Part shown: positions 7,196 to 25,531 of the stretch, in pieces
Position numbering within the stretch: position 1 is the first letter of the stretch
Layout of the letters: each line of letters opens with the position of its first letter
Source of the DNA: a virus
Lineage: Duplodnaviria; Heunggongvirae; Uroviricota; Caudoviricetes
Reading direction: 5' to 3' (one strand)
Length of the DNA stretch: 26,524 bases
Virus record (IMG/VR): IMGVR_UViG_2541047721_000003
Translations under genes and position numbers: made by a program
Notes under the pieces: model-generated
Database searches by the model: none
Told to the model about the DNA's origin: nothing
What the model saw: the letters and a program-made list of their open reading frames with translations, nothing else

Positions 7196-7396
7196 CTACT
7201 CCCCCCACAACTGAATCATTTCTCGTTTCTTCTTCTCCGGCTCCGGCATCTCCACTTCCTGCCCGGCGTCCAGAAATACCTGCTGACAGAGTCCGGGGTT
7301 GGCATCCAGCACCTTTTCGGTGACGCCCTGTGTCGTGCCGTAGTACCGGAAACAGAGCGAATCCACGGTGTCGCCTTCCAGTGCCTTCACTTTCAT
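7196..7396 (-). CDS. X: Tail protein gpX
   Basis: 66 aa from ATG 7396 (MKVKALEGDTVDSLCFRYYG...), matching P2 gpX in size and N-terminal pattern. Overlaps the L stop (TGATG). Confidence 0.8.
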   Translation of the reverse strand: MKVKALEGDTVDSLCFRYYGTTQGVTEKVLDANPGLCQQVFLDAGQEVEMPEPEKKKREMIQLWGE

Positions 7397-7890
7397 CAGC
7401 ACAGCTCCGCAAACATTCGCGGTCGTCCCAGAATGTCAGAGATGGCCCAGCTCACATCGCGCCACAAATCCGATGTCTGTATATCCAGTGCGTCCGCCCG
7501 GCGATCGCCCTTGTCCGTTGTGTCCGCATCGCGGTAACGCTCCAGAATCAGGGCACGTGTGGCGGTATAAACAGCATTGCGCCAGTGCCAGAGATTGACG
7601 CTTTCTCCGTTAATTACGGGTGCCGGAACATCGGCCAGCGTCTGATGGCCAGCCGCCTGCTGTTCCTGCTGCCACGCTTCCAGCTCGCGGGTAACGTGTG
7701 CTATGGCCCCGGTGGCGGTATGCAGCAGGCGGGAGGTGGTCACGCGGCCCGGCAGTCGTACCGCCAGACGCAGCTCACGCAGCACAATATCCGGCCAGAA
7801 TGCACCCGCTGAAATACGGGTATCACCATCATCGGTATCGGTGATGTCGTCCTCTGCGGGGCCGGGGTTGGTTCTGGCAACCATACTCAT
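7396..7890 (-). CDS. L: Head completion / stabilisation protein gpL
   Basis: About 164 aa from ATG 7890 (AGGAG RBS 8 nt upstream); the track's 7899 start is GTG. C-terminal DLWRDV..W..I.G.PR region resembles P2 gpL. Confidence 0.8.
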   Translation of the reverse strand: MSMVARTNPGPAEDDITDTDDGDTRISAGAFWPDIVLRELRLAVRLPGRVTTSRLLHTATGAIAHVTRELEAWQQEQQAAGHQTLADVPAPVINGESVNLWHWRNAVYTATRALILERYRDADTTDKGDRRADALDIQTSDLWRDVSWAISDILGRPRMFAELC

Positions 7891-10904: not shown

Positions 10905-12656
10905 ATGATTCAGGACGCTTTTGTGCGCCAGCGTGCGCGGCAACTTTACTGGCAGGGTTATCCGCCCGCAGAAATATCACGTCTGATGGGAATAAACCCG
11001 AACACGATTTATGCGTGGAAAAAACGCGACCAGTGGGATGAAACGCCACCCGTGCAGCGTGTCACGCAGTCCATCGATGCGCGCCTCATCCAGCTTACTG
11101 AAAAACAGAATAAAACAGGCGGTGACTTTAAGGAAATAGACCTGCTGACCCGGCAGCTTAAAAAAATGCATGATGGCCAGCCGGATGCGACGGCCACAGG
11201 AAAGAAAGGCCGGGCGAAAAAACTCAAAAATCATTTCACGCCGGAACAGATTGCCGCACTGCGGGAAAAAATCATCAGCAGGCTGGAGTGGCATCAGCGG
11301 GGCTGGTTTGACTCCCTGACCCTTTGCAGGGAAGCCGGGATACGTAACAGGATGATCCTGAAATCCCGACAGATTGGCGCGACCTGGTATTTTGCACAGG
11401 AAGCACTGCTGATGGCGCTGCGTGACGATGTGGCGCAACCTTACCAGCGTAACCAGATTTTTTTGTCTGCGTCGCGTCGTCAGGCGTTCCAGTTTAAAAG
11501 CATTATTCAGAAGGCTGCGGCTGAAGTTGATGTGGAGCTGAAAGGGGGCGATAAAATCATCCTCTCCAACGGCGCAGAGCTGCATTTTCTCGGCACTTCT
11601 GCTGCGTCGGCGCAGTCCTATACGGGCAATTTTTATTTTGATGAATTTTTCTGGGTCAGTCGCTTTGCTGAACTGCGCAAGGTGGCTGGCGCTATGGCAA
11701 CCCTCAGCGGATTGCGGCGCACCTACTTCTCCACGCCATCCACCGAAACGCACGAGGCATACGCCTACTGGAACGGCGACCGCTGGAACGAGAAAAAGGC
11801 CACGCATAAACGCCAGCGTTTTTCTGTGGACTGGAAAACGCTGCATAACGGGCTTATCTGCCCTGACCGGACGTGGCGGCAAATTGTCACGCTGGAAGAT
11901 GTGGTTAATCACGGCTGGAAACACACCGATATCGACGAAATTCGTGATGAAAACACCGAAGACGAGTTCCTCAATCTCTATATGTGTGAGTTTGTCCGCG
12001 AAGGGGAATCGGCATTTAACCTGAATATCCTGATTGGCTGCGGTGTTGACGGATACGACGACTGGAAAGACTGGAAACCTTTTGCTCCCCGCCCGATAGG
12101 GAATCGTCCGGTATGGATTGGGTATGACGCAAACGGCAGCAGTGGAAACGGCGACAGCGGCGCTGTGTCCGTGGTGGTTCCTCCGGCTGTTCCTGGCGGC
12201 CGTTTTCGAACGGTGGAGACGCGACGCGTTCAGGGGCTGGAGTTTGAAGAACAGGCCAGAGTCATTGAAGAGTTCACGTGTCGCTACAACGTGGAACACA
12301 TCGGCATTGATGTGACAGGCGGGAACGGGGAGGCTGTTTATCAGATAGTGAAGCGGTTTTTCCCTGCTGCTATTCCGTACACCTTCACGCTGTCATCAAA
12401 ACGGTCGCTGGTACTGAAAATGCTGCAAATAATGCGTGCCGGGCGGTGGGAATACGATCGCGCCGAACGCGAGTTGGTCGCAGCCTTTAACGCCGTGCGT
12501 AAGGTGAAAACACCGGGCGGCTTTATCACTTACGAAACGGACCGCGCGAGGGGGATCAGCCACGGCGACCTTGCGTGGGCAACCATGCTTGCTGTCATTA
12601 ACGAACCAATTGGCGGCGAAGGAGAAAACGAGCGTTTCACGGTTATGGAGTTCTGA
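10905..12656 (+). CDS. P: Terminase large (ATPase) subunit gpP
   Basis: 583 aa, ATG with GGGGGAG RBS. N-terminal LYWQGYPPAEISRLMG...YAWKKRDQWDE resembles P2 gpP. Divergent from O as in P2. Confidence 0.88.
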   Translation: MIQDAFVRQRARQLYWQGYPPAEISRLMGINPNTIYAWKKRDQWDETPPVQRVTQSIDARLIQLTEKQNKTGGDFKEIDLLTRQLKKMHDGQPDATATGKKGRAKKLKNHFTPEQIAALREKIISRLEWHQRGWFDSLTLCREAGIRNRMILKSRQIGATWYFAQEALLMALRDDVAQPYQRNQIFLSASRRQAFQFKSIIQKAAAEVDVELKGGDKIILSNGAELHFLGTSAASAQSYTGNFYFDEFFWVSRFAELRKVAGAMATLSGLRRTYFSTPSTETHEAYAYWNGDRWNEKKATHKRQRFSVDWKTLHNGLICPDRTWRQIVTLEDVVNHGWKHTDIDEIRDENTEDEFLNLYMCEFVREGESAFNLNILIGCGVDGYDDWKDWKPFAPRPIGNRPVWIGYDANGSSGNGDSGAVSVVVPPAVPGGRFRTVETRRVQGLEFEEQARVIEEFTCRYNVEHIGIDVTGGNGEAVYQIVKRFFPAAIPYTFTLSSKRSLVLKMLQIMRAGRWEYDRAERELVAAFNAVRKVKTPGGFITYETDRARGISHGDLAWATMLAVINEPIGGEGENERFTVMEF

Positions 12657-13702
12657 TGAGCAGAAAAAATAAAAAAGTGCGCATGAGTTCACGCATTGAT
12701 CTCGCTGATGCGCTCAGGAAAGAATCATCGCTCAGTGCATTCACATTTGATGGTCCTTATCGCCTGACCGGGCATGACCTGCTGGACAATATGTACTGTG
12801 CTGATAACGGGCGGTGGTATGAAACCCCGGTGGACTGGTACGGTCTGGCAAGAGCAGCCCGGCAAACGTCCTGGCATCAGTCTGCGCTTTACTTTAAGCG
12901 CAATGTATTACTCGGTTGCTACATCCCGCACCCGCTGCTTTCCCGGCAGGATTTCTCGGCGCTGGCGCTGGACTGGTTTGTGTTCGGTAACGCATTCCTT
13001 GAGCTTCGAAGCAATATGCTCGGCGAACCGCTTAAATTACGGCACGCCCTGGCGAAATATATGCGACGCGGAAGCGATCTTGAATCATGGTGGTATGTGC
13101 AGGATGGCAAGGACGCGTTTCAGTTTCGTCCTGGCAAAGTGTGCCACCTGATGAATCCGGATATTAACCAGGAAATCTACGGCATGCCGGAATATCTTGG
13201 CGCATTACTCTCGGCCAGCCTTTCTCATTCGGCGGACATGTTCAGAAAACTGTACTACGACAACGGATCCCACGCCGGGTGCATCATCTACATCGGTGCA
13301 GCGCAGGTAAACCGCGAAAGCATGGACTCCCTGAAAGAAACGCTACAGGGGGCACGTGGTGGTGGTGCGTTTAAAAACGTGCTCATTCATGCGCCCAACG
13401 GGGGCAAAGAGGGGGTGCAAATTTTGCCGTTCCAGCAGATCACCGCAAAAGATGAATTCATGAATGTTAAGGCGGCATCCCGTGATGATGTGCTGGCTGC
13501 GCACCGCGTTCCGCCGCAACTGATGGGGGCGATGCCGGGCGAAAAAAGTGCGTTTGGCGATGTGGAGAAGGCAGCGCGGGTTTACGCAATTAACGAGCTG
13601 ATGCCCGTCATGGAGGCTATGAAGCACATCAATGACTGGCTTGGCGAAGAGGTGATCCGTTTTAACTCTTATGCTCTTCTTGATGAAAAAACAGCCCCGT
13701 GA
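12656..13702 (+). CDS. Q: Portal protein gpQ
   Basis: 348 aa (P2 gpQ about 344 aa). ATG overlaps the P stop (ATGA). Followed by a bidirectional terminator. Confidence 0.85.
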   Translation: MSRKNKKVRMSSRIDLADALRKESSLSAFTFDGPYRLTGHDLLDNMYCADNGRWYETPVDWYGLARAARQTSWHQSALYFKRNVLLGCYIPHPLLSRQDFSALALDWFVFGNAFLELRSNMLGEPLKLRHALAKYMRRGSDLESWWYVQDGKDAFQFRPGKVCHLMNPDINQEIYGMPEYLGALLSASLSHSADMFRKLYYDNGSHAGCIIYIGAAQVNRESMDSLKETLQGARGGGAFKNVLIHAPNGGKEGVQILPFQQITAKDEFMNVKAASRDDVLAAHRVPPQLMGAMPGEKSAFGDVEKAARVYAINELMPVMEAMKHINDWLGEEVIRFNSYALLDEKTAP

Positions 13703-13718
13703 TGGGGCTGTCCTTTTT
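13691..13718. terminator. Bidirectional intrinsic terminator between convergent Q and the 174-aa gene
   Basis: 8-bp perfect stem ACAGCCCC/GGGGCTGT (13691..13698 / 13704..13711) with loop GTGAT, flanked by an A-run upstream and a T-run downstream. The Q stop codon lies in the loop. Confidence 0.6.
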
Positions 13719-14241
13719 ACCAGAGTTGAACCATTTTCTGGGTGCCGTCAGGCTTGAGATTATCAATTTCAGAGAGAACGTAATATTGAATGGCTTCACA
13801 AACGGTGGTGTAGGGGGAATTACCTTCTTTAAGTGGCACGATATTATTATTAACGCGAACCTGTATTTCATCGTTATACATTGCGATCGAAACAGGCGTG
13901 TGCACGAACGCGACTTCGCCAGGTGTGTCGTCAACCACCGTTTCAATACTAAAAGTCAGTTTTCGCTCATCATTGCTGCCCCGTGCTTTGGGGGTAGCGG
14001 CAGGGATCTGGGATAAAGGCATTCTGCGAAATCCTTCGGCTGCTTCCAGTCCGCATGAAACGTAATGCTGGCGATTACCGTCGCTATCTGTCCAGGTCTG
14101 TGATGGCAGCTCCAGCGAGATTTCATAAGCATCAACAATGCCCTGGGCAAGGCGTACAAGCGGGGTCAGATCTTCATTGCGGCGAAAGCTCTCCTTTACC
14201 TGCTCCCGTTTTTCTCTTAACTGCTTGTAATTAATGACCAT
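13717..14241 (-). CDS. Hypothetical protein, about 174 aa (cargo gene between portal gene and cos-like region)
   Basis: ATG at 14241 with GGAGG RBS 7 nt upstream; the track's 14280 start is GTG. Lower GC than flanking structural genes by eye. No recognisable motif. Confidence 0.5.
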   Translation of the reverse strand: MVINYKQLREKREQVKESFRRNEDLTPLVRLAQGIVDAYEISLELPSQTWTDSDGNRQHYVSCGLEAAEGFRRMPLSQIPAATPKARGSNDERKLTFSIETVVDDTPGEVAFVHTPVSIAMYNDEIQVRVNNNIVPLKEGNSPYTTVCEAIQYYVLSEIDNLKPDGTQKMVQLW

Positions 14242-14340
14242 AAGACAGCCTCCATTGATTTCTTTGCTCGTATTTTGCACTTATGAAGTATGGTCGGCAA
14301 GGTGCCGTATCGCTGACGCGCTTCGCTTGTCTGCTGCTTC

Positions 14341-14369
14341 GCCGGGGCATAAAAAATTTATGCCCCGGC
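14341..14369. other. Perfect 13-bp-stem palindrome GCCGGGGCATAAA-AAA-TTTATGCCCCGGC
   Basis: Read directly from the sequence; 100 bp upstream of the 174-aa gene start. Possible terminator, operator or RNA structure. Confidence 0.4.
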
Positions 14370-14627
14370 TCTCCAGCTCCTGTATCAATCAGATAATTTC
14401 ACGACGCCTTCCAGTTTATCGCCACCATCGACGGTCAGACTCTTACGCAATTCCACCGCGTTGACTGCATGTTCTCGCTGCCTCAGTGCGATTTTGACGG
14501 CCTTACCTTTCACCCCATCAAATCAAAAGCCCTCACGCCTTTTTCATGCTCAGCGTGAGAAATATGGCCATTCTGTTGTGTCTCTGCGACATCGTTCAGG
14601 GAATGCTATTTACCCCCTGAAACGCGG

Positions 14628-14651
14628 GCTGTTCCCCCGTCACCTGCGCGC
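14628..14651. other. Candidate cos (cohesive end) region
   Basis: GCTGTTCCCCCGTCACCTGCGCGC partly resembles the reverse complement of the P2/186 cos core (GGCG(A/T)GGCGGGGAAAGCA, recalled from memory). Orientation relative to Q is as expected. Unverified. Confidence 0.3.
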
Positions 14652-14740
14652 AGAAAAAACGCGTTTTTTTGTGCACGCACGGATCCCTGACGGATCCAGC
14701 CGCCACGCGGGCCGGAAGGGCAAAAAGTCGTTCAAAAAAA

Positions 14741-14767
14741 TTGTGCAAATTTGTGCACTATTGTGCA
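14741..14767. repeat. Three tandem TTGTGCA iterons with exact 10-bp spacing (a fourth copy at about 14669)
   Basis: TTGTGCAAAT TTGTGCACTA TTGTGCATTG read directly. Adjacent to the AAAAAACGCGTTTTTT palindrome (14653..14669) and the ACGGATCC direct repeat. Confidence 0.5.
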
Positions 14768-14775
14768 TTGAAATA

Positions 14776-14797
14776 AACGCCCTGGAAGAGGGCGTTT
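14776..14797 (-). terminator. Intrinsic terminator of the minus-strand operon ending at 14808
   Basis: Stem AACGCCCT/AGGGCGTT with loop GGAAG, about 10 nt after the stop of the 112-aa gene, followed on the minus strand by a T-rich tract. Confidence 0.55.
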
Positions 14798-14807
14798 TGG
14801 CTCATTT

Positions 14808-15146
14808 CTATAGCTTTGATGCAGGCTGGGCTAGGTCTCCTTTGATGCCAGTGTTTACAACCTGACAAGCCTCTTTGAGTACCCAGTCAACAGCGTCTTT
14901 CCATGCTCCGGTTTCGGCTGGCGGATTCTCACGCTTTACCAGTTCATAGAATCGTACTGCTCTAACCAGTCCATCTGACGGTTTTGCCTGTAGTGCAGCC
15001 TGAGCTATGCGGTATGCCTGGAGCATACGGGCGTCGTTGATATCCATTCCGAACGGAATTTCTGATGATTGTGATTCTGCATCTTCAAGCCTGGCAATTT
15101 CTTTACGTAAAAAGTATTTCAACTCTTGTTTTTGTTTTCTGTTCAT
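14808..15146 (-). CDS. Hypothetical protein, 112 aa (co-operonic with the ClpX-ZBD-like gene)
   Basis: ATG at 15146 overlaps the stop of the upstream gene (ATGA). Predicted largely helical and charged. No recognisable motif. Confidence 0.55.
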
Positions 15147-15475
15147 GCGTTTTTTCCCTTTTTGTCTGTCACTTCTCTCCTGATAATTTCATTGCACAAA
15201 TCCACGCACTCATTGCAGATGCAAACAGACGGTCCGGCAATCACCTTTGTGACTTCGTACTGAGATTTATTGCAGAAGCTGCAATAAATCGTCTCCTCGC
15301 CTGAAGTCCATGTTTTGCTGGTTTCGCCAGACATCAGTTGTTTGAGGTCTTTTTCACGACGAAGAACTATCTGGCCACATTCAGCTATTTTTTGGATGTT
15401 GACATTTTCTTCTTTCGCCAGCGCTTCCATCCGCTCAATCAGTCGCTGCGCTTTTTCTCTGTCAATGTGTTGCAT
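15143..15475 (-). CDS. Small protein with C-terminal ClpX-type C4 zinc-binding domain (zf-C4_ClpX-like), N-terminal coiled-coil-like region
   Basis: 110 aa, ATG at 15475 with AAGGGGGA RBS. Segment [35 protein letters not shown] closely parallels the E. coli ClpX N-terminal zinc-binding domain ([32 protein letters not shown], from memory), including the CxxC...CxxC spacing. Confidence 0.7.
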
Positions 15476-15538: not shown

Positions 15539-15850
15539 TTATTCGGGAAATAACGCCCTGATATTTCCGGCCATCCGACTGGTTATCTGTGAGGTTGGTA
15601 CTGGCTGTGACGCGGGGCGTTCTGTCCTGGTTTGTGTCACTGATAACGCCTCATCGTCAGCCCATGCAGCCAGTCGGTAAGCCTCTGCCGGATTCATTTT
15701 CAGAAGTGCCAGCCCGGCCAGAAAAGCCACACGTTGGCCGCTTTTGCGGGCTTCTGGTGTAAGGCTGTCCAGCCAGGTGCATGCTTCGCCTTCGTTCTTG
15801 ACGGCGGCGGGCTTCAGATAGAAACTTATCCGTCTGGTTGGTGTCGTCAT
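15539..15850 (-). CDS. parR: ParR-like centromere-binding adaptor (RHH)
   Basis: 103 aa from ATG 15850 (AAGGAG RBS), 4 nt after the parM stop. RRISFYLKP...AFLAGLAL...ALFPE parallels plasmid R1 ParR (RTIAFKLNP...ALTAGLAL...SLFPKE, from memory). Confidence 0.68.
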   Translation of the reverse strand: MTTPTRRISFYLKPAAVKNEGEACTWLDSLTPEARKSGQRVAFLAGLALLKMNPAEAYRLAAWADDEALSVTQTRTERPASQPVPTSQITSRMAGNIRALFPE

Positions 15851-15854
15851 TGGT

Positions 15855-16814
15855 TTACTCCTTGTCCATTGCGTACAGCCCATTAACCAGAGCAAACTGT
15901 GGCACCCCGTCCGCGATGAAAGTCGCATTAACTCCGCAGGCTTCGCGGATAGCGGGTGCCACAATCTCCGCCCCGCCACCGACAACCATCACCCGCCCGT
16001 AACCCGAAAAACCCGCCAGCGCGCGGATCACTCGTTGTTTCAGTGTTTCTTCCTTTTCACGAATAACCGCCATCAGGCTGTCGTAATGCGCGTCATTGTG
16101 GATGTGCTGGCGCAGCCAGGCTTCATCATGGCGATGTTCGATAATGGTATTGGCGATGTGGTGACTGGTGCGCATACCGTTAGTGGCCATCACCGACAGT
16201 ACGGCATCGGCCATCAGAGAAACGCCTACGTGTGGATCGCAAAACACCTGGCTGATACCTGCCAGTTGCCCCTGAACCTTTGCCACATCCAGCGTGGTTC
16301 CGCCCAAATCCACAATCAGCAGGGATTCAAACGGACTCATGTCAGCCAGTGCCTTAAAGCCAGCCGGAATGGATTCAGGCATAACCCGCACGTTACGGAT
16401 AGTGAATGCTTCGCCGTTCTGGTACTCCACCGGGCGCATAACGTTCGCTTTTTTGCGGTTGATGTTGGCCATGTCCGGCTGTGCGTTTGTGTCGAAATAC
16501 TCGCTCAGTGGCAGGGTGACAACCACATCCACCTCCTGTGGCGTGATGCCTGATTTGACCAGCGCGTGATGAATGGCAATTACATTCACATCGCTGTACT
16601 GGTATTGCGTGTCGGTCGTCTGGACAAATCGAACGCTGACCGGATCAAAACCATAGCGCACGCCATCAAGCATGTAGTTTGCGGGCTGCATGCCACCGAA
16701 CGGCGCAGACCATTCCGATTTGAAGCTGTTCGGGCTGATGGCGTTGCGGCGTTCGCCGTTCTCAGTCCATGCCAGCTTGATGTTGGTGGAGCCGTCGTCG
16801 ATACAAATTTTCAT
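15855..16814 (-). CDS. parM: ParM/StbA-like actin-type segregation ATPase
   Basis: 319 aa. MKICIDDGSTNIKLAW N-terminus and segments ISPNSFK, YSDVNV..HHAL, VMPE.IPAG, LLI.DLGGTTLD, GVSL, V.GGGAE, LVNG closely parallel R1 ParM (about 320 aa, from memory). AAGGA RBS. Confidence 0.85.
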   Translation of the reverse strand: MKICIDDGSTNIKLAWTENGERRNAISPNSFKSEWSAPFGGMQPANYMLDGVRYGFDPVSVRFVQTTDTQYQYSDVNVIAIHHALVKSGITPQEVDVVVTLPLSEYFDTNAQPDMANINRKKANVMRPVEYQNGEAFTIRNVRVMPESIPAGFKALADMSPFESLLIVDLGGTTLDVAKVQGQLAGISQVFCDPHVGVSLMADAVLSVMATNGMRTSHHIANTIIEHRHDEAWLRQHIHNDAHYDSLMAVIREKEETLKQRVIRALAGFSGYGRVMVVGGGAEIVAPAIREACGVNATFIADGVPQFALVNGLYAMDKE

Positions 16815-16845: not shown

Positions 16846-16956
16846 TTTACGGGGTTTTTAAATCCCGTTTTTGCCTGTTTTATGCGCGCTTCATATATCG
16901 CGGCGCGTTTTTTGCTCATTTACGGGTTTTGTGAATCCCGTTTCTGTCTGTTTTTT
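16846..16956. repeat. parC-like region: two about 38-bp direct repeats flanking a putative promoter
   Basis: TTTACGGGGTTTTTAAATCCCGTTTTTGCCTGTTTTAT (16846..16883) and TTTACGGGTTTTGTGAATCCCGTTTCTGTCTGTTTTTT (16919..16956), each with an ACGGG...CCCGT inverted sub-element. Lies immediately upstream of parM and overlaps the last codons of A. Confidence 0.5.
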
Positions 16957-19713
16957 GTTTCCACTGGTCAGGCTACCCCGCAGCAGGTCTGCTTTGCGGC
17001 GGGCGCGTTCAGTGGTTTCACTGATTCTCTGTGCGTGCTCTGCGTCACGGATGGCGCGCAGCATGTCAGAAAGCACGGTAACGGGGGTTTTCATGGTGTT
17101 CTGGTCCTGCTGAAGTGTGGATGCCAGGCGTGCGGCGGCTTCGGGGTCTGATGCCCCCAGCTGTTCCAGATAGCCGGCGACCGGGTTATGGCGGATCTCC
17201 GTGCTGCTTACGCCGTGATTACGGCTCAGGCGCTGCCAGAGCTGCGTGATTCGGCTGTCCGGGCGGGTATCCGGTTTGCGTACAATTTCAAATCCCTGCG
17301 GTGCAATGATGCTGCCGTCAACGTACAGGCTGCCGCCCCGTAACAGGTGCTGCATCTGCTGTTCACCGATATGCAGGCCGAGAGATTCGGCAGACTCCCG
17401 CCATTCTTTAGCGAGTAATTCGTGGTTATCAGGCAAAGGCCGCTGCTGTTTGCGGCTCTGTGTCCAGCTCTGCATTTCATCACTGCTGTTTTTTGCCTGT
17501 TTATCATGAAGCGAACGCATCAGCGCCCGGCGTTCGTGCCGTTTCAGTGAGCGCATCCATTCGTTCACTTCAACGCCATCAGGGAGCTGCGGCCACGGTG
17601 CTGGCCGTTCTTCCGGCTGTTCTGCCCCGTTGTTGTTCGTTTCCTGTACACGGGGACAGTTATTGCCACGAGTCCAAGGGGCGGCAGGGCCGCCCTGAAG
17701 GTCAAAACCATTTTCGCGGGCGCTGTCTTCCGTTTCCGGTTTACGTCTTACCAGTTTCCAGTTATCCGGATGCGTGCACACACGGGAGGATTCCCCGATG
17801 AGTGGTGACCAGATCCCGTAAATCTGTACGCTCTGTTCGCCGTAATCATTCAGCTCATCTGCGAGGTCGTAGGCGGTGCGAATCAGGTAGTCTTTGCGTG
17901 GAACAAGTACGCCGCCCTGTTTTTCAATGTAGGTGGCAAAACACCCGGCATCGGCGGCAGCGAGTACCGCATCCATTGCGTCATCTTTCAGTCGTTGCGG
18001 GCCTTCCGGGTTGCGTGCCATCTGGCTGGCAAGGCGGCGCAGTTCACGCCACACCTGACGGGAGGGGATGCCAAAGAACTGGAACTGGCGGACCCGATGA
18101 AGGCGCGCCCAGCCGATGGCGCGCTCCACACTCTCGGCCATTGATTTTCCGGTTTCGTGGTCAACGCGTGGCTTGCCCGTTTTCGGGTCGATGCCATCCA
18201 CGGCGCGGCTGTCCAGGTTCTTTCCGATGTAGGTCGCGATATAGCTGGTTGGTGTGCCTTTTGAGCCGTCGACGTACTCCGCTTTAAAACGCGGAGTTAT
18301 GTCATCGCCCAGCTCGTGGCGGTCTTCCTGAATGGCAATATCGCAGACGTGGGACACGATGGTTTCAATCTCGTCCGGATGTGCAAAGACCATCATATGC
18401 CAGTGCACAGTGCCGTCATGGTGAGGCTCCACCGTGCGGATGCCATACCAGCGAAGACCGTCGCGGTTCAGTTTTTTGCGGACCGCCGCAAAAAAAGTGT
18501 TAACCAGGTAATCGCTGGAGTCGCGCATGGTGGCCCCGTTCCATTTGGGATTCGGATGACCGTTCTCCGTTGTTGCGTGGTATTTTGACGGGCAGGTAAC
18601 GGTCAGAAACACCGCTCTGTCGCTACGGGCTTCGGCCAGAAGTTCCAGTCCCTTCATGGTGGCCATCATTTCTGCCTTACGGTGAACCGGGTTACTTACT
18701 CCCGCGTAATACACTGTCTCGAGATCAATCGTGAACCCGTCTTCATTTTCCAGCATGAAACTTTTCAGGAAATCGCGTGTTTTCTCGCGCTGTGCGCGAA
18801 ACTCGCTTAACGCGTCCTGGCTCAGATAGGGCGATGTTTTTCTGGAAACCAGACAGGCGGCGCGGAGTTGTTCTTCCCGCCACTCGCAACGTAACAGCCA
18901 CAGTTTGCGTTTCCACCATTCCGCACAGGTCAGGCGAAGGATTGCGCCCGGCAGCAGTTCTGTGTCCGGTTCGTTCCTCCGGTCTTTGTCTGTTGTCAGT
19001 GCGTCATAATGCGGAGGCATGGCGTGCAAGTGTAACGCCATGCGGGCTAGCATCTGATACGCCTTCAGCGTTACATCCATGGTCAGCTCGCCATCAGTCG
19101 CGCCAAAACCATCGCAGAGTTTTTCGAAGGTGCTGCTGAACATCGCCGCCGTCATGGTGGCCAGCGTCTGTATCTGGTGTTTGTTGAGTTGCGGCAGGTA
19201 AAGCAAATCGTCCAGGCGTTCGCGTCCGGCAAGGGACCGATAACCCGGTGTCAGCCAACGGCTGTCGGTGCGGTCCAGACGTACGAATATTTTGCGCAGG
19301 GTTCCGCGCGCGTAGCGTTCAGCCTGCCAGCTCTTTTTGCCTTTCTGGCGATCGGCTTCCTGTTTTTTGCGCAGGAAGGAGAGGTGGCGAATAAGCGGAT
19401 CGCGCAGATAGGACGGCAGCAGGCGCAGCGAGGCCATGGCTTCATCCACCGCGCCGCGTGCCTGTTTTCTGGCGTCTCCTGCCAGTGTGATGGTTTTGTC
19501 CTGTTTTTCCTGTGCGTCCAGGTTTTTATTAATCAGGTTGCCCAGCGGCGTTGCGGAGAACGCCGCATCAGCCATTTCCTGGCGGCGCTCGTTCTCTGCC
19601 CGGTAGGCATCCAGCCAGGAGGAAAGCGCGGATTCAGGTGCGGGGATCCCCGTTCCTTCACGCCCCACTGCGTGGCGCGGTTGTTGCCAGTCCCTGATGT
19701 ACTCTGCCGTCAT
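16891..19713 (-). CDS. A: Replication initiation endonuclease gpA (rolling-circle, HUH superfamily)
   Basis: 940 aa. HUH-type motif VHWHMMVF and paired catalytic tyrosines Y-x3-Y (SYIATYIGK, about residues 491/495 by manual count), as in the P2 A protein. Longer than P2 gpA (about 761 aa). Confidence 0.85.
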   Translation of the reverse strand: MTAEYIRDWQQPRHAVGREGTGIPAPESALSSWLDAYRAENERRQEMADAAFSATPLGNLINKNLDAQEKQDKTITLAGDARKQARGAVDEAMASLRLLPSYLRDPLIRHLSFLRKKQEADRQKGKKSWQAERYARGTLRKIFVRLDRTDSRWLTPGYRSLAGRERLDDLLYLPQLNKHQIQTLATMTAAMFSSTFEKLCDGFGATDGELTMDVTLKAYQMLARMALHLHAMPPHYDALTTDKDRRNEPDTELLPGAILRLTCAEWWKRKLWLLRCEWREEQLRAACLVSRKTSPYLSQDALSEFRAQREKTRDFLKSFMLENEDGFTIDLETVYYAGVSNPVHRKAEMMATMKGLELLAEARSDRAVFLTVTCPSKYHATTENGHPNPKWNGATMRDSSDYLVNTFFAAVRKKLNRDGLRWYGIRTVEPHHDGTVHWHMMVFAHPDEIETIVSHVCDIAIQEDRHELGDDITPRFKAEYVDGSKGTPTSYIATYIGKNLDSRAVDGIDPKTGKPRVDHETGKSMAESVERAIGWARLHRVRQFQFFGIPSRQVWRELRRLASQMARNPEGPQRLKDDAMDAVLAAADAGCFATYIEKQGGVLVPRKDYLIRTAYDLADELNDYGEQSVQIYGIWSPLIGESSRVCTHPDNWKLVRRKPETEDSARENGFDLQGGPAAPWTRGNNCPRVQETNNNGAEQPEERPAPWPQLPDGVEVNEWMRSLKRHERRALMRSLHDKQAKNSSDEMQSWTQSRKQQRPLPDNHELLAKEWRESAESLGLHIGEQQMQHLLRGGSLYVDGSIIAPQGFEIVRKPDTRPDSRITQLWQRLSRNHGVSSTEIRHNPVAGYLEQLGASDPEAAARLASTLQQDQNTMKTPVTVLSDMLRAIRDAEHAQRISETTERARRKADLLRGSLTSGNKKQTETGFTKPVNEQKTRRDI

Positions 19714-20756: not shown

Positions 20757-21587
20757 TTACTTCACCGGAACAAACGGAACAGCGGTGTTGCTGGTCATGT
20801 ATTGCGGCAGCGTGCCGTTCCATTTGTTGATTGCTTCCAGCTCCATAACGCCGGGATTCTGGCGCAGAGCTTCACCGCGTAAACGAATGGCGTCGGCTTC
20901 AGCCTGGGCTTTTGTGCGAATGGCATCGGCTTGTCCGGCAGCTTCTGCGCGCAGCATGTTGGCTTCAGCTTCGCGTTGCTTGACTTCCTGTTCACGTTGC
21001 AGGGTTTTCTGGTTTGCCGTGACTTTGGCATTAATGCTGTCGATAACGGTTGGTGGGTATTCCGGCTTACCCACATAAGAGAGGCTCATTACCTGAATGC
21101 CGATAGGTGTCATTTCTGCCTGAATGTCTTTAAGTGCTGAATCCAGCAGTTCAGACTTGCCACCGTCGATAAATTTATCGGTGGTCATTTTGCTGGCCAG
21201 TCGGTTGAGTGCGTCGGCGATCTTCTGGCGCAGGTCAGTGTCGGTAATGTCGTCCACGCCTTTGCGGTAGGTCTGAAACACCGTGGTAACTTTGGATGGA
21301 TCAACTTTGTAGGCCACGCCGATGTGATAGCCGATGGTTGTGCCGTCACTCATCTGGAAGTTGAACGGCTCATCGTAAGTCTTCATTTGTTTGAAAGTCG
21401 GGAAGATGTAAACCTCTGTATTCCAGCCTGTCCAGTAGCGGCCAACGCCAACTACTTCGCCGACGCCTTTGTCGTCGCCCAGTTTGTTGACTTTGATTCC
21501 CACATTACCTGGCTCAACGCGATCGCAACCAACCAGCAGGATGGCGGCAAAAAGCGGGAGAATCTGAAAGAGTTTGAATTTCTTCAT
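20757..21587 (-). CDS. SPFH/band-7 (stomatin/prohibitin/HflKC-like) lipoprotein
   Basis: 276 aa. N-terminal signal with lipobox (ILLVGC). Central region consistent with an SPFH domain. C-terminal Ala/Glu/Gln/Arg-rich coiled coil (QREQEVKQREAEANMLRAEAAGQADAIRTKAQAEADAIRLRGEA) typical of HflK/HflC/YqiK-type proteins. ATG overlaps the stop of the upstream small gene. Confidence 0.78.
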   Translation of the reverse strand: MKKFKLFQILPLFAAILLVGCDRVEPGNVGIKVNKLGDDKGVGEVVGVGRYWTGWNTEVYIFPTFKQMKTYDEPFNFQMSDGTTIGYHIGVAYKVDPSKVTTVFQTYRKGVDDITDTDLRQKIADALNRLASKMTTDKFIDGGKSELLDSALKDIQAEMTPIGIQVMSLSYVGKPEYPPTVIDSINAKVTANQKTLQREQEVKQREAEANMLRAEAAGQADAIRTKAQAEADAIRLRGEALRQNPGVMELEAINKWNGTLPQYMTSNTAVPFVPVK

Positions 21588-25462: not shown

Positions 25463-25531
25463 CTCTACACATTGAGCGAATTACATATCGCAAGGAGTGT
25501 TTAGTTAATTTATCCGTTGGAGGGGCTAATC

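Follow-up and report, generated by a model that had tools for sequence, protein, structure and literature searches.

The stretch of DNA analyzed here (26,524 nucleotides, hereafter the window) is a P88-like prophage (Xuanwuvirus, Peduoviridae) of the E. coli type. It carries the large terminase gene (positions 10905 to 12656, plus strand), the portal gene Q (12656 to 13702, plus strand; Pfam Phage_portal, 8.3e-18; annotated as portal in P88), the replication gene A (GPA, 16891 to 19713, minus strand; Pfam, 2e-128), and an integrase gene that starts at 25517. A protein of the SPFH/Band 7 family (PF01145, 4.2e-31) is encoded at 20757 to 21587 (minus strand), among the early-region genes. The gene under study is an open reading frame (ORF) at 13717 to 14241 on the minus strand, which in the ORF list encodes 174 amino acids (aa) from an ATG at 14241 and has Q, convergent with it, as its conserved left flank. 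Besides the ORF list, the coding assignment draws on a match to PHROG 5091, dN/dS values, AlphaFold models, and the RefSeq annotation in E. coli strain M1/5, where WP_000236495.1 is identical or near-identical to the product encoded here.

The expression signals around the ORF were read from the sequence and from scans of it. A ribosome-binding site (RBS), GGAGG (cctcc on the plus strand), lies at 14249 to 14253 on the coding (minus) strand, 7 nt before the ATG, in line with the sequence-only reading, which had described a separate gene with a strong RBS, convergent with Q. An alternative start, the GTG at 14280 upstream of the ATG, would give a protein of 187 aa; its use is unlikely because of overlap with the RBS and because a conserved N-terminus, M-x-I-T/N-Y, is the start point in all 52 homologs. 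The candidate sigma-70 promoter (14272 to 14300, minus strand) consists of TTGCCG at 14300 to 14295, a 17-nt spacer, and CAAAAT at 14277 to 14272. This promoter would be a weak one, as it matches the consensus at 8 of 12 positions and falls under the threshold of 9 of 12 that was set for the scan. The P2-type late-promoter box (TGT-N12-ACA) was absent from the 179 nt upstream of the ORF, and an Rfam scan of positions 13400 to 15200 gave no match.

At the other end of the gene, a terminator scan and the sequence itself identified a hairpin at 13691 to 13711 with a 9-bp stem containing 6 GC pairs. On the plus strand, a T-run follows this hairpin and an A-run precedes it, so that it should be able to terminate both Q and the ORF. 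The loop of the hairpin contains the Q stop codon (13700 to 13702), whereas the stop codon of the ORF (13717 to 13719) is 5 nt from the hairpin. This arrangement bears out the bidirectional terminator common to the two genes that had been proposed from the sequence, and the lower GC content noted there by eye was confirmed by counting. The ORF has a GC content of 0.478 (GC3, 0.486) compared to 0.529 (GC3, 0.593) for Q and a mean GC of 0.531 for the window; the Q, P, GpA, and capsid genes range from 0.529 to 0.574 (GC3, 0.593 to 0.681), all above the ORF values.

We then asked whether the ORF is a functional gene. It is optional and has no annotated function anywhere, as might be expected of a chance or decaying reading frame without function. 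Against this stands the dN/dS of 0.08 relative to the E. coli variant of strain RM9131 and of 0.17 relative to a more distant E. coli-type lineage; a chance reading frame would therefore not account for it. In addition, the ORF was full-length in 397 of 397 E. coli genomes that carry the gene, HMMER, run exhaustively against 1.8 billion representative proteins, recovered 89 relatives aligned over their full length down to ∼25% identity, and the protein has a fold predicted with high confidence. The ORF is thus a real gene under purifying selection, and the spurious-ORF reading is effectively excluded.

The gene lies within a unit that is present or absent as a whole. Comparison by BLAST with P88 and P88_4B11, together with inspection of the junction sequences, delimited a 635-bp cassette at 13678 to 14312 that contains alternative last five codons of Q, the terminator, the ORF, its RBS, and the promoter region. 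In its place P88 has 21 bp, which include the last five codons of its Q, and the junctions are clean. A perfect 13-bp hairpin, recognized as an inverted repeat and from the P88 junction, lies at 14341 to 14369; in relatives without the gene, including P88, it directly follows the 3′ end of Q, whereas in the window it lies upstream of the candidate ORF promoter. This hairpin is likely the original Q terminator.

Among 17 phage records matching the region, 4 carry the gene, intact in each, and those four were deposited as isolates. The Q-cos region was present in 1,146 of 5,426 complete E. coli genomes, and 397 of these 1,146 have the gene, always on the chromosome. All gene-less E. coli matches listed in an evenly spaced sample showed an empty form of ∼807 bp. 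The junction at Q is therefore two-state, with or without the gene, and not hypervariable in the way of a classic defense hotspot. Since the gene is missing from the viable P88 and carried by 397 of 1,146 E. coli regions, it is dispensable for the phage. The sequence-only reading had regarded absence or disruption of the ORF in near-identical relatives, without consequence, as speaking against its proposal. Absence was found, in P88 and in ∼65% of the E. coli Q-cos regions, and was counted as accessory behavior and not as a refutation, because dispensability is what is expected of an accessory gene.

The same reading had described a single-gene insertion. That the cassette holds a single, separately terminated gene with a presence/absence distribution was upheld, but the direction implied by "inserted" is doubtful. 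The Q-plus-ORF order is colinear in two lineages whose DNA is only 69% (a Salmonella lineage) and 78% identical, and P88 may therefore have lost the gene, rather than the window having gained it. Comparison of the window with the 78% lineage gave a dS of 0.45 for the ORF, while the neighboring portal gene was saturated, which indicates that the gene has been exchanged as a module. Partner cargo on the A side differs as well: M1/5 has an S8 peptidase and an AAA ATPase where the window has ParM/ParR and a ClpX-zinc-finger protein. Taken together, these data make it very probable that the element is an autonomous, exchangeable accessory ("moron") cassette.

The position of the gene relative to cos was deduced from conservation between lineages and from the end of the P88_4B11 record, not from P2 cos, which had no significant similarity to the window when the two were aligned. 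A 145-bp core at 14623 to 14767 is conserved, at 73 to 98% identity, in Salmonella and Trabulsiella prophages and in divergent ones of the E. coli type, all with different flanks, and the linear P88_4B11 record ends at window position 14722, beside a GC-rich stretch. This stretch (14700 to 14722) is likely the cohesive-end site. By the conserved core and the record end, the ORF is on the Q side of cos, ∼460 bp away, in agreement with the earlier placement of the gene between the portal gene and a cos-like region. The P2 spacing quoted with that placement, about 130 bp from portal gene to cos, needs correction: cosL of P2 occupies bases 1 to 19 and its Q gene reaches its end at base 187, a spacing of ∼167 bp.

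Several features of the Q-cos interval were recorded in passing. The motif TTGTGCA occurs four times within 100 bp (at 14669, 14741, 14751, and 14761), directly beside the putative cos cut (window positions 14669 to 14767), and three of the copies are spaced exactly 10 bp apart. Over the whole window its count is not significant (10 versus 6.3 expected); the clustering and helical phasing beside the putative cut are striking and make these copies candidate binding sites for the terminase small subunit. The Q-cos spacer also holds, at 14574 to 14591, a TGT-N12-ACA palindrome, which has the form of the P2 Ogr/late-activator box and occurs only twice in the window; the spacer copy is ∼55 bp upstream of the would-be start of a leftward transcript for a 42-aa ORF (14385 to 14513; P88 gp22). 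In a related prophage (L016), a second Q-side cargo gene (7354 to 7857, plus strand; 167 aa; no Pfam match) has the old Q-terminator hairpin on one side and the cos core on the other, and the Q-cos interval thus has at least two insertion points.

To place the gene in a wider setting, we compared the genome contexts of its relatives. The close relatives (60 to 97% identity), in records labeled E. coli, Salmonella, and Yersinia, adjoin a P2-like portal gene wherever the context was examined, and an alignment search for close relatives among species-representative genomes matched only two genomes. Eight contexts of distant relatives were examined. Three of these, in metagenomic and genomic lambdoid prophages (L017, L025, and L026), place the homolog directly after the late antiterminator Q and before the holin, the same interval in which the stx genes of Stx phages sit; this position implies late lytic expression and not expression in the lysogen. 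Single homologs were found between lysis genes and terminase, inside a myophage baseplate module, and at an ordinary chromosomal locus, and the remaining two contexts were too short to judge. As no neighbor gene is conserved, the gene appears to be a single-gene unit that has repeatedly landed in moron sites. In Trabulsiella guamensis (L004, 8001 to 10053), the homolog directly follows gpA, on the other side of cos. It is followed there by HicB-containing and Phd/Fic toxin-antitoxin pairs and then by cos, forming a stacked accessory island on the A side.

These contexts bear on a role in packaging or head assembly, in which the protein would act as an auxiliary factor with the portal or at cos. 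The ORF adjoins Q and lies ∼460 bp from the cos core in both E. coli and Salmonella P2-like prophages, and one homolog sits between lysis and terminase genes, as such a role would have it. Yet the ORF is transcribed against the late operon, the Trabulsiella homolog stands beside gpA and not Q, and other homologs are far from packaging genes. The dispensability of the gene, which P88 and most other phage records of the group lack, as do ∼65% of the E. coli prophages that share this Q-cos region, already largely refutes this role, and we consider it very improbable.

We next turned to the protein. The earlier description of the gene as an orphan does not hold, as its product belongs to PHROG 5091 (E = 1.4e-67; protein residues 1 to 168 against profile positions 1 to 164 of 164). 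All 52 aligned relatives likewise match PHROG 5091, and most of the HMMER relatives are 155 to 175 aa long and align end to end at 22 to 33% identity. An AlphaFold2 model from 11 sequences had a pLDDT of 80; with 52 sequences the pLDDT was 90.5 and the pTM 0.81, and the secondary structure was identical to that of the 11-sequence model. The predicted fold has two helices at the N terminus and one at the C terminus, together with an antiparallel sheet in which a long hairpin predominates. The protein is acidic (pI 5.0; family median, 5.1), and no signal peptide, membrane or hydrophobic segment, or enzymatic motif was found in it. Near-invariant positions of the family are mostly hydrophobic or aromatic, and the sole conserved charged residue, K152, is Q in the clade of the window. 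From these features we infer that the product is a soluble cytoplasmic binding protein, and not an enzyme or a membrane or exported protein.

Searches for a domain or a known relative were negative, and the remark made from sequence that no motif could be recognized has held up against profile searches. Pfam and NCBIfam gave no usable match for the protein or its 52 relatives, and PADLOC-DB v2.0.0 contained no family matching the window protein at E values up to 1; among the 52 relatives, PADLOC gave only two isolated marginal matches. A profile search of solved-structure sequences found nothing, and a BFVD search gave no match. A single-sequence match to designed helical repeat proteins (E = 2.7e-7) was rejected as an artefact, as it summed three sub-threshold matches to repeat units. 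Comparisons with solved structures returned sub-threshold noise, namely, Med17, the FP domains of PI31 and Fbxo7, CapZ, P1 DarA, the TnsE C-terminal domain, Imm52, TriTu, type III secretion chaperones, and AcrIIA11, with similarity scores too low for assignment to a superfamily.

The ORF lies between GPA and Q, and its location in a known hotspot is thereby confirmed: the cos-proximal gpA-gpQ interval of P2-like phages is a hotspot for antiphage and other accessory genes, including old and tin (Rousset et al. 2022, PMC9122126). The gene itself is not newly noticed. Table S5A of that study, the locus table, lists WP_000236495 as "hypothetical" no fewer than 167 times, and the accession is not in its table of tested systems (PMC9122126). 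It is thus already catalogued as hotspot cargo of uncharacterized function. Literature searches by the accession WP_000236495 and by PHROG 5091 found no paper, and the supplements of Vassallo 2022 held no match to the protein. A 2026 survey reported that many hypothetical genes at P2 and P4 defense loci are predicted or shown to be antiviral (PMC13586616). The gene is one among many hypotheticals in a described hotspot, and its position alone will not surprise a specialist. It is nevertheless present in ∼7% of complete E. coli genomes (397 of 5,426), ST131-labeled strains included, and PHROG 5091 extends across temperate phages of Proteobacteria, with no characterized member, Pfam family, or solved-structure relative.

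Other cargo was seen on the A side of cos. In the window, ParM (15855 to 16814) and ParR/Plasmid_stab_B (15539 to 15850) form a plasmid-type partition system within the gpA-gpQ hotspot (15539 to 16814, minus strand); such partition systems have been noted in roughly one in four P2-like phages (PMC9122126). Also on the A side, a 110-aa protein (15143 to 15475, minus strand) lacks an ATPase domain and is essentially a C4 zinc finger of the ClpX type (PF06689, 2.9e-16), possibly a mimic or competitor of the ClpX N-domain. E. coli M1/5 (L012, 8160 to 11530) has the same ORF and cos core, and the S8 family peptidase and AAA ATPase on its A side look like a candidate two-gene system.

What might the protein do? 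The sequence-only reading had guessed at a defense or lysogenic-conversion gene from its position only. In the model that we propose, the element would be a self-contained moron cassette with an RBS and probably also a weak sigma-70 promoter of its own, as well as a terminator common with Q, and would supply the lysogen with a soluble, acidic, 174-aa alpha+beta protein of PHROG 5091. The predicted fold is most like non-enzymatic protein-binding scaffolds. With a scaffold-like fold and no catalytic signature, the protein most likely binds and blocks or sequesters another protein and does not carry out catalysis. Made by the prophage, it may act as P2 Tin does and interfere with a competing phage. 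On our analysis, such an antiphage (exclusion) role is the single likeliest one for the protein, with a probability of roughly 0.35.

In favor of exclusion, the gpA-gpQ interval is a documented reservoir of antiphage systems (PMC9122126), and many hypotheticals at such loci score as defensive (PMC13586616). The gene is a real, selected one in a dispensable cassette, with modular exchange and a GC content lower than that of core genes, and the mostly hydrophobic or aromatic conserved positions, the pI of 5.0, and the lack of a hydrophobic segment fit a non-enzymatic binder. The homolog at an ordinary chromosomal locus also fits a benefit to the host better than a phage-only role. On the other hand, PADLOC, Pfam, and NCBIfam provide no homology link to any defense system, and there is no similarity to Tin. 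An effector domain or a membrane segment is found in most validated defense proteins but not in this one. The candidate promoter is weak and below the scan threshold, the junction is two-state instead of hypervariable, and the antiterminator-holin site of three of the eight distant homologs, which implies late lytic expression, sits uneasily with a protein made in the lysogen.

Small, acidic, domain-less proteins are more typical of counter-defense factors, and this profile, together with the late-operon positions of homologs, points to a second reading, a close rival of exclusion, that we hold tentatively. The phage would make an inhibitor that neutralizes a host immune protein by binding it, for example, a sensor of late phage proteins, and would thereby possibly be protected in lytic growth or after induction. 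Counter-defense or immunity suits a small acidic binding protein about as well as defense does. Also a close rival, though slightly less probable, is a benefit to the lysogen that is independent of phages, through another form of lysogenic conversion. Here the product would either modulate a host pathway or, as an orphan immunity protein, counter a bacterial toxin (of the T6SS, Rhs, CDI, or colicin type). The chromosomal homolog and the hotspot context agree with a host-beneficial role, but no cognate toxin was found nearby in any context examined, no Pfam immunity family matched, and the similarity scores were too low for a superfamily.

A more specific proposal, which we consider improbable, is that PHROG 5091 represents a previously unrecognized family of single-protein conflict factors with a fold that has no relative among solved structures, stoichiometric decoys or inhibitors encoded beside late or packaging genes (portal, cos, or late-operon leader) that would block a late protein of a competing phage or an immune sensor with which the host detects portal- or terminase-type proteins. 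Were the exclusion role, or counter-defense, to prove correct, the gene would add a non-enzymatic, single-protein mechanism to the repertoire of the P2 hotspot and would reveal that cargo is also found on the Q side of cos.

Finally, we compared the gene and its product with known systems. The product is a member of PHROG 5091 and does not differ from it; since this group has no characterized member, membership gives no function. The predicted fold appears to share its general architecture, helices on one face of an antiparallel sheet, with the inhibitors P1 DarA and AcrIIA11 and the immunity proteins Imm52 and TriTu, and like these the ORF product is small, acidic, and non-enzymatic. Classic temperate-phage morons include lambda bor and lom and stx, the last between Q and S. 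Like them, the cassette is an autonomous unit that ends in a terminator of its own, is atypical in composition, and has a presence/absence distribution, and its distant homologs occupy the moron sites from Q antiterminator to holin and from lysis genes to terminase. It differs in that the bor, lom, and stx products are exported or membrane proteins, whereas the ORF product is soluble and acidic, and in that its promoter is only a candidate.

With other cargo of the gpA-gpQ hotspot, the gene shares its location between gpA and gpQ by cos, its on/off occurrence among near-identical phages, a GC content below that of the core, and module exchange between lineages. Unlike old, tin, and most cargo, which lie on the A side, it is on the Q side, directly against Q, its junction is two-state, and its product has no defense-associated domain. 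P2 Tin poisons a T-even phage protein and is not an enzyme. An hhalign comparison of the 52-sequence profile with P2 Tin gave a probability of 0.35%, tin lies across cos from the ORF, and the ORF product has 174 aa compared to 253 aa for Tin. Both are nonetheless single cytoplasmic proteins encoded in the same P2-family hotspot and carry no recognizable enzymatic domain, and Tin provides the precedent for exclusion by binding.
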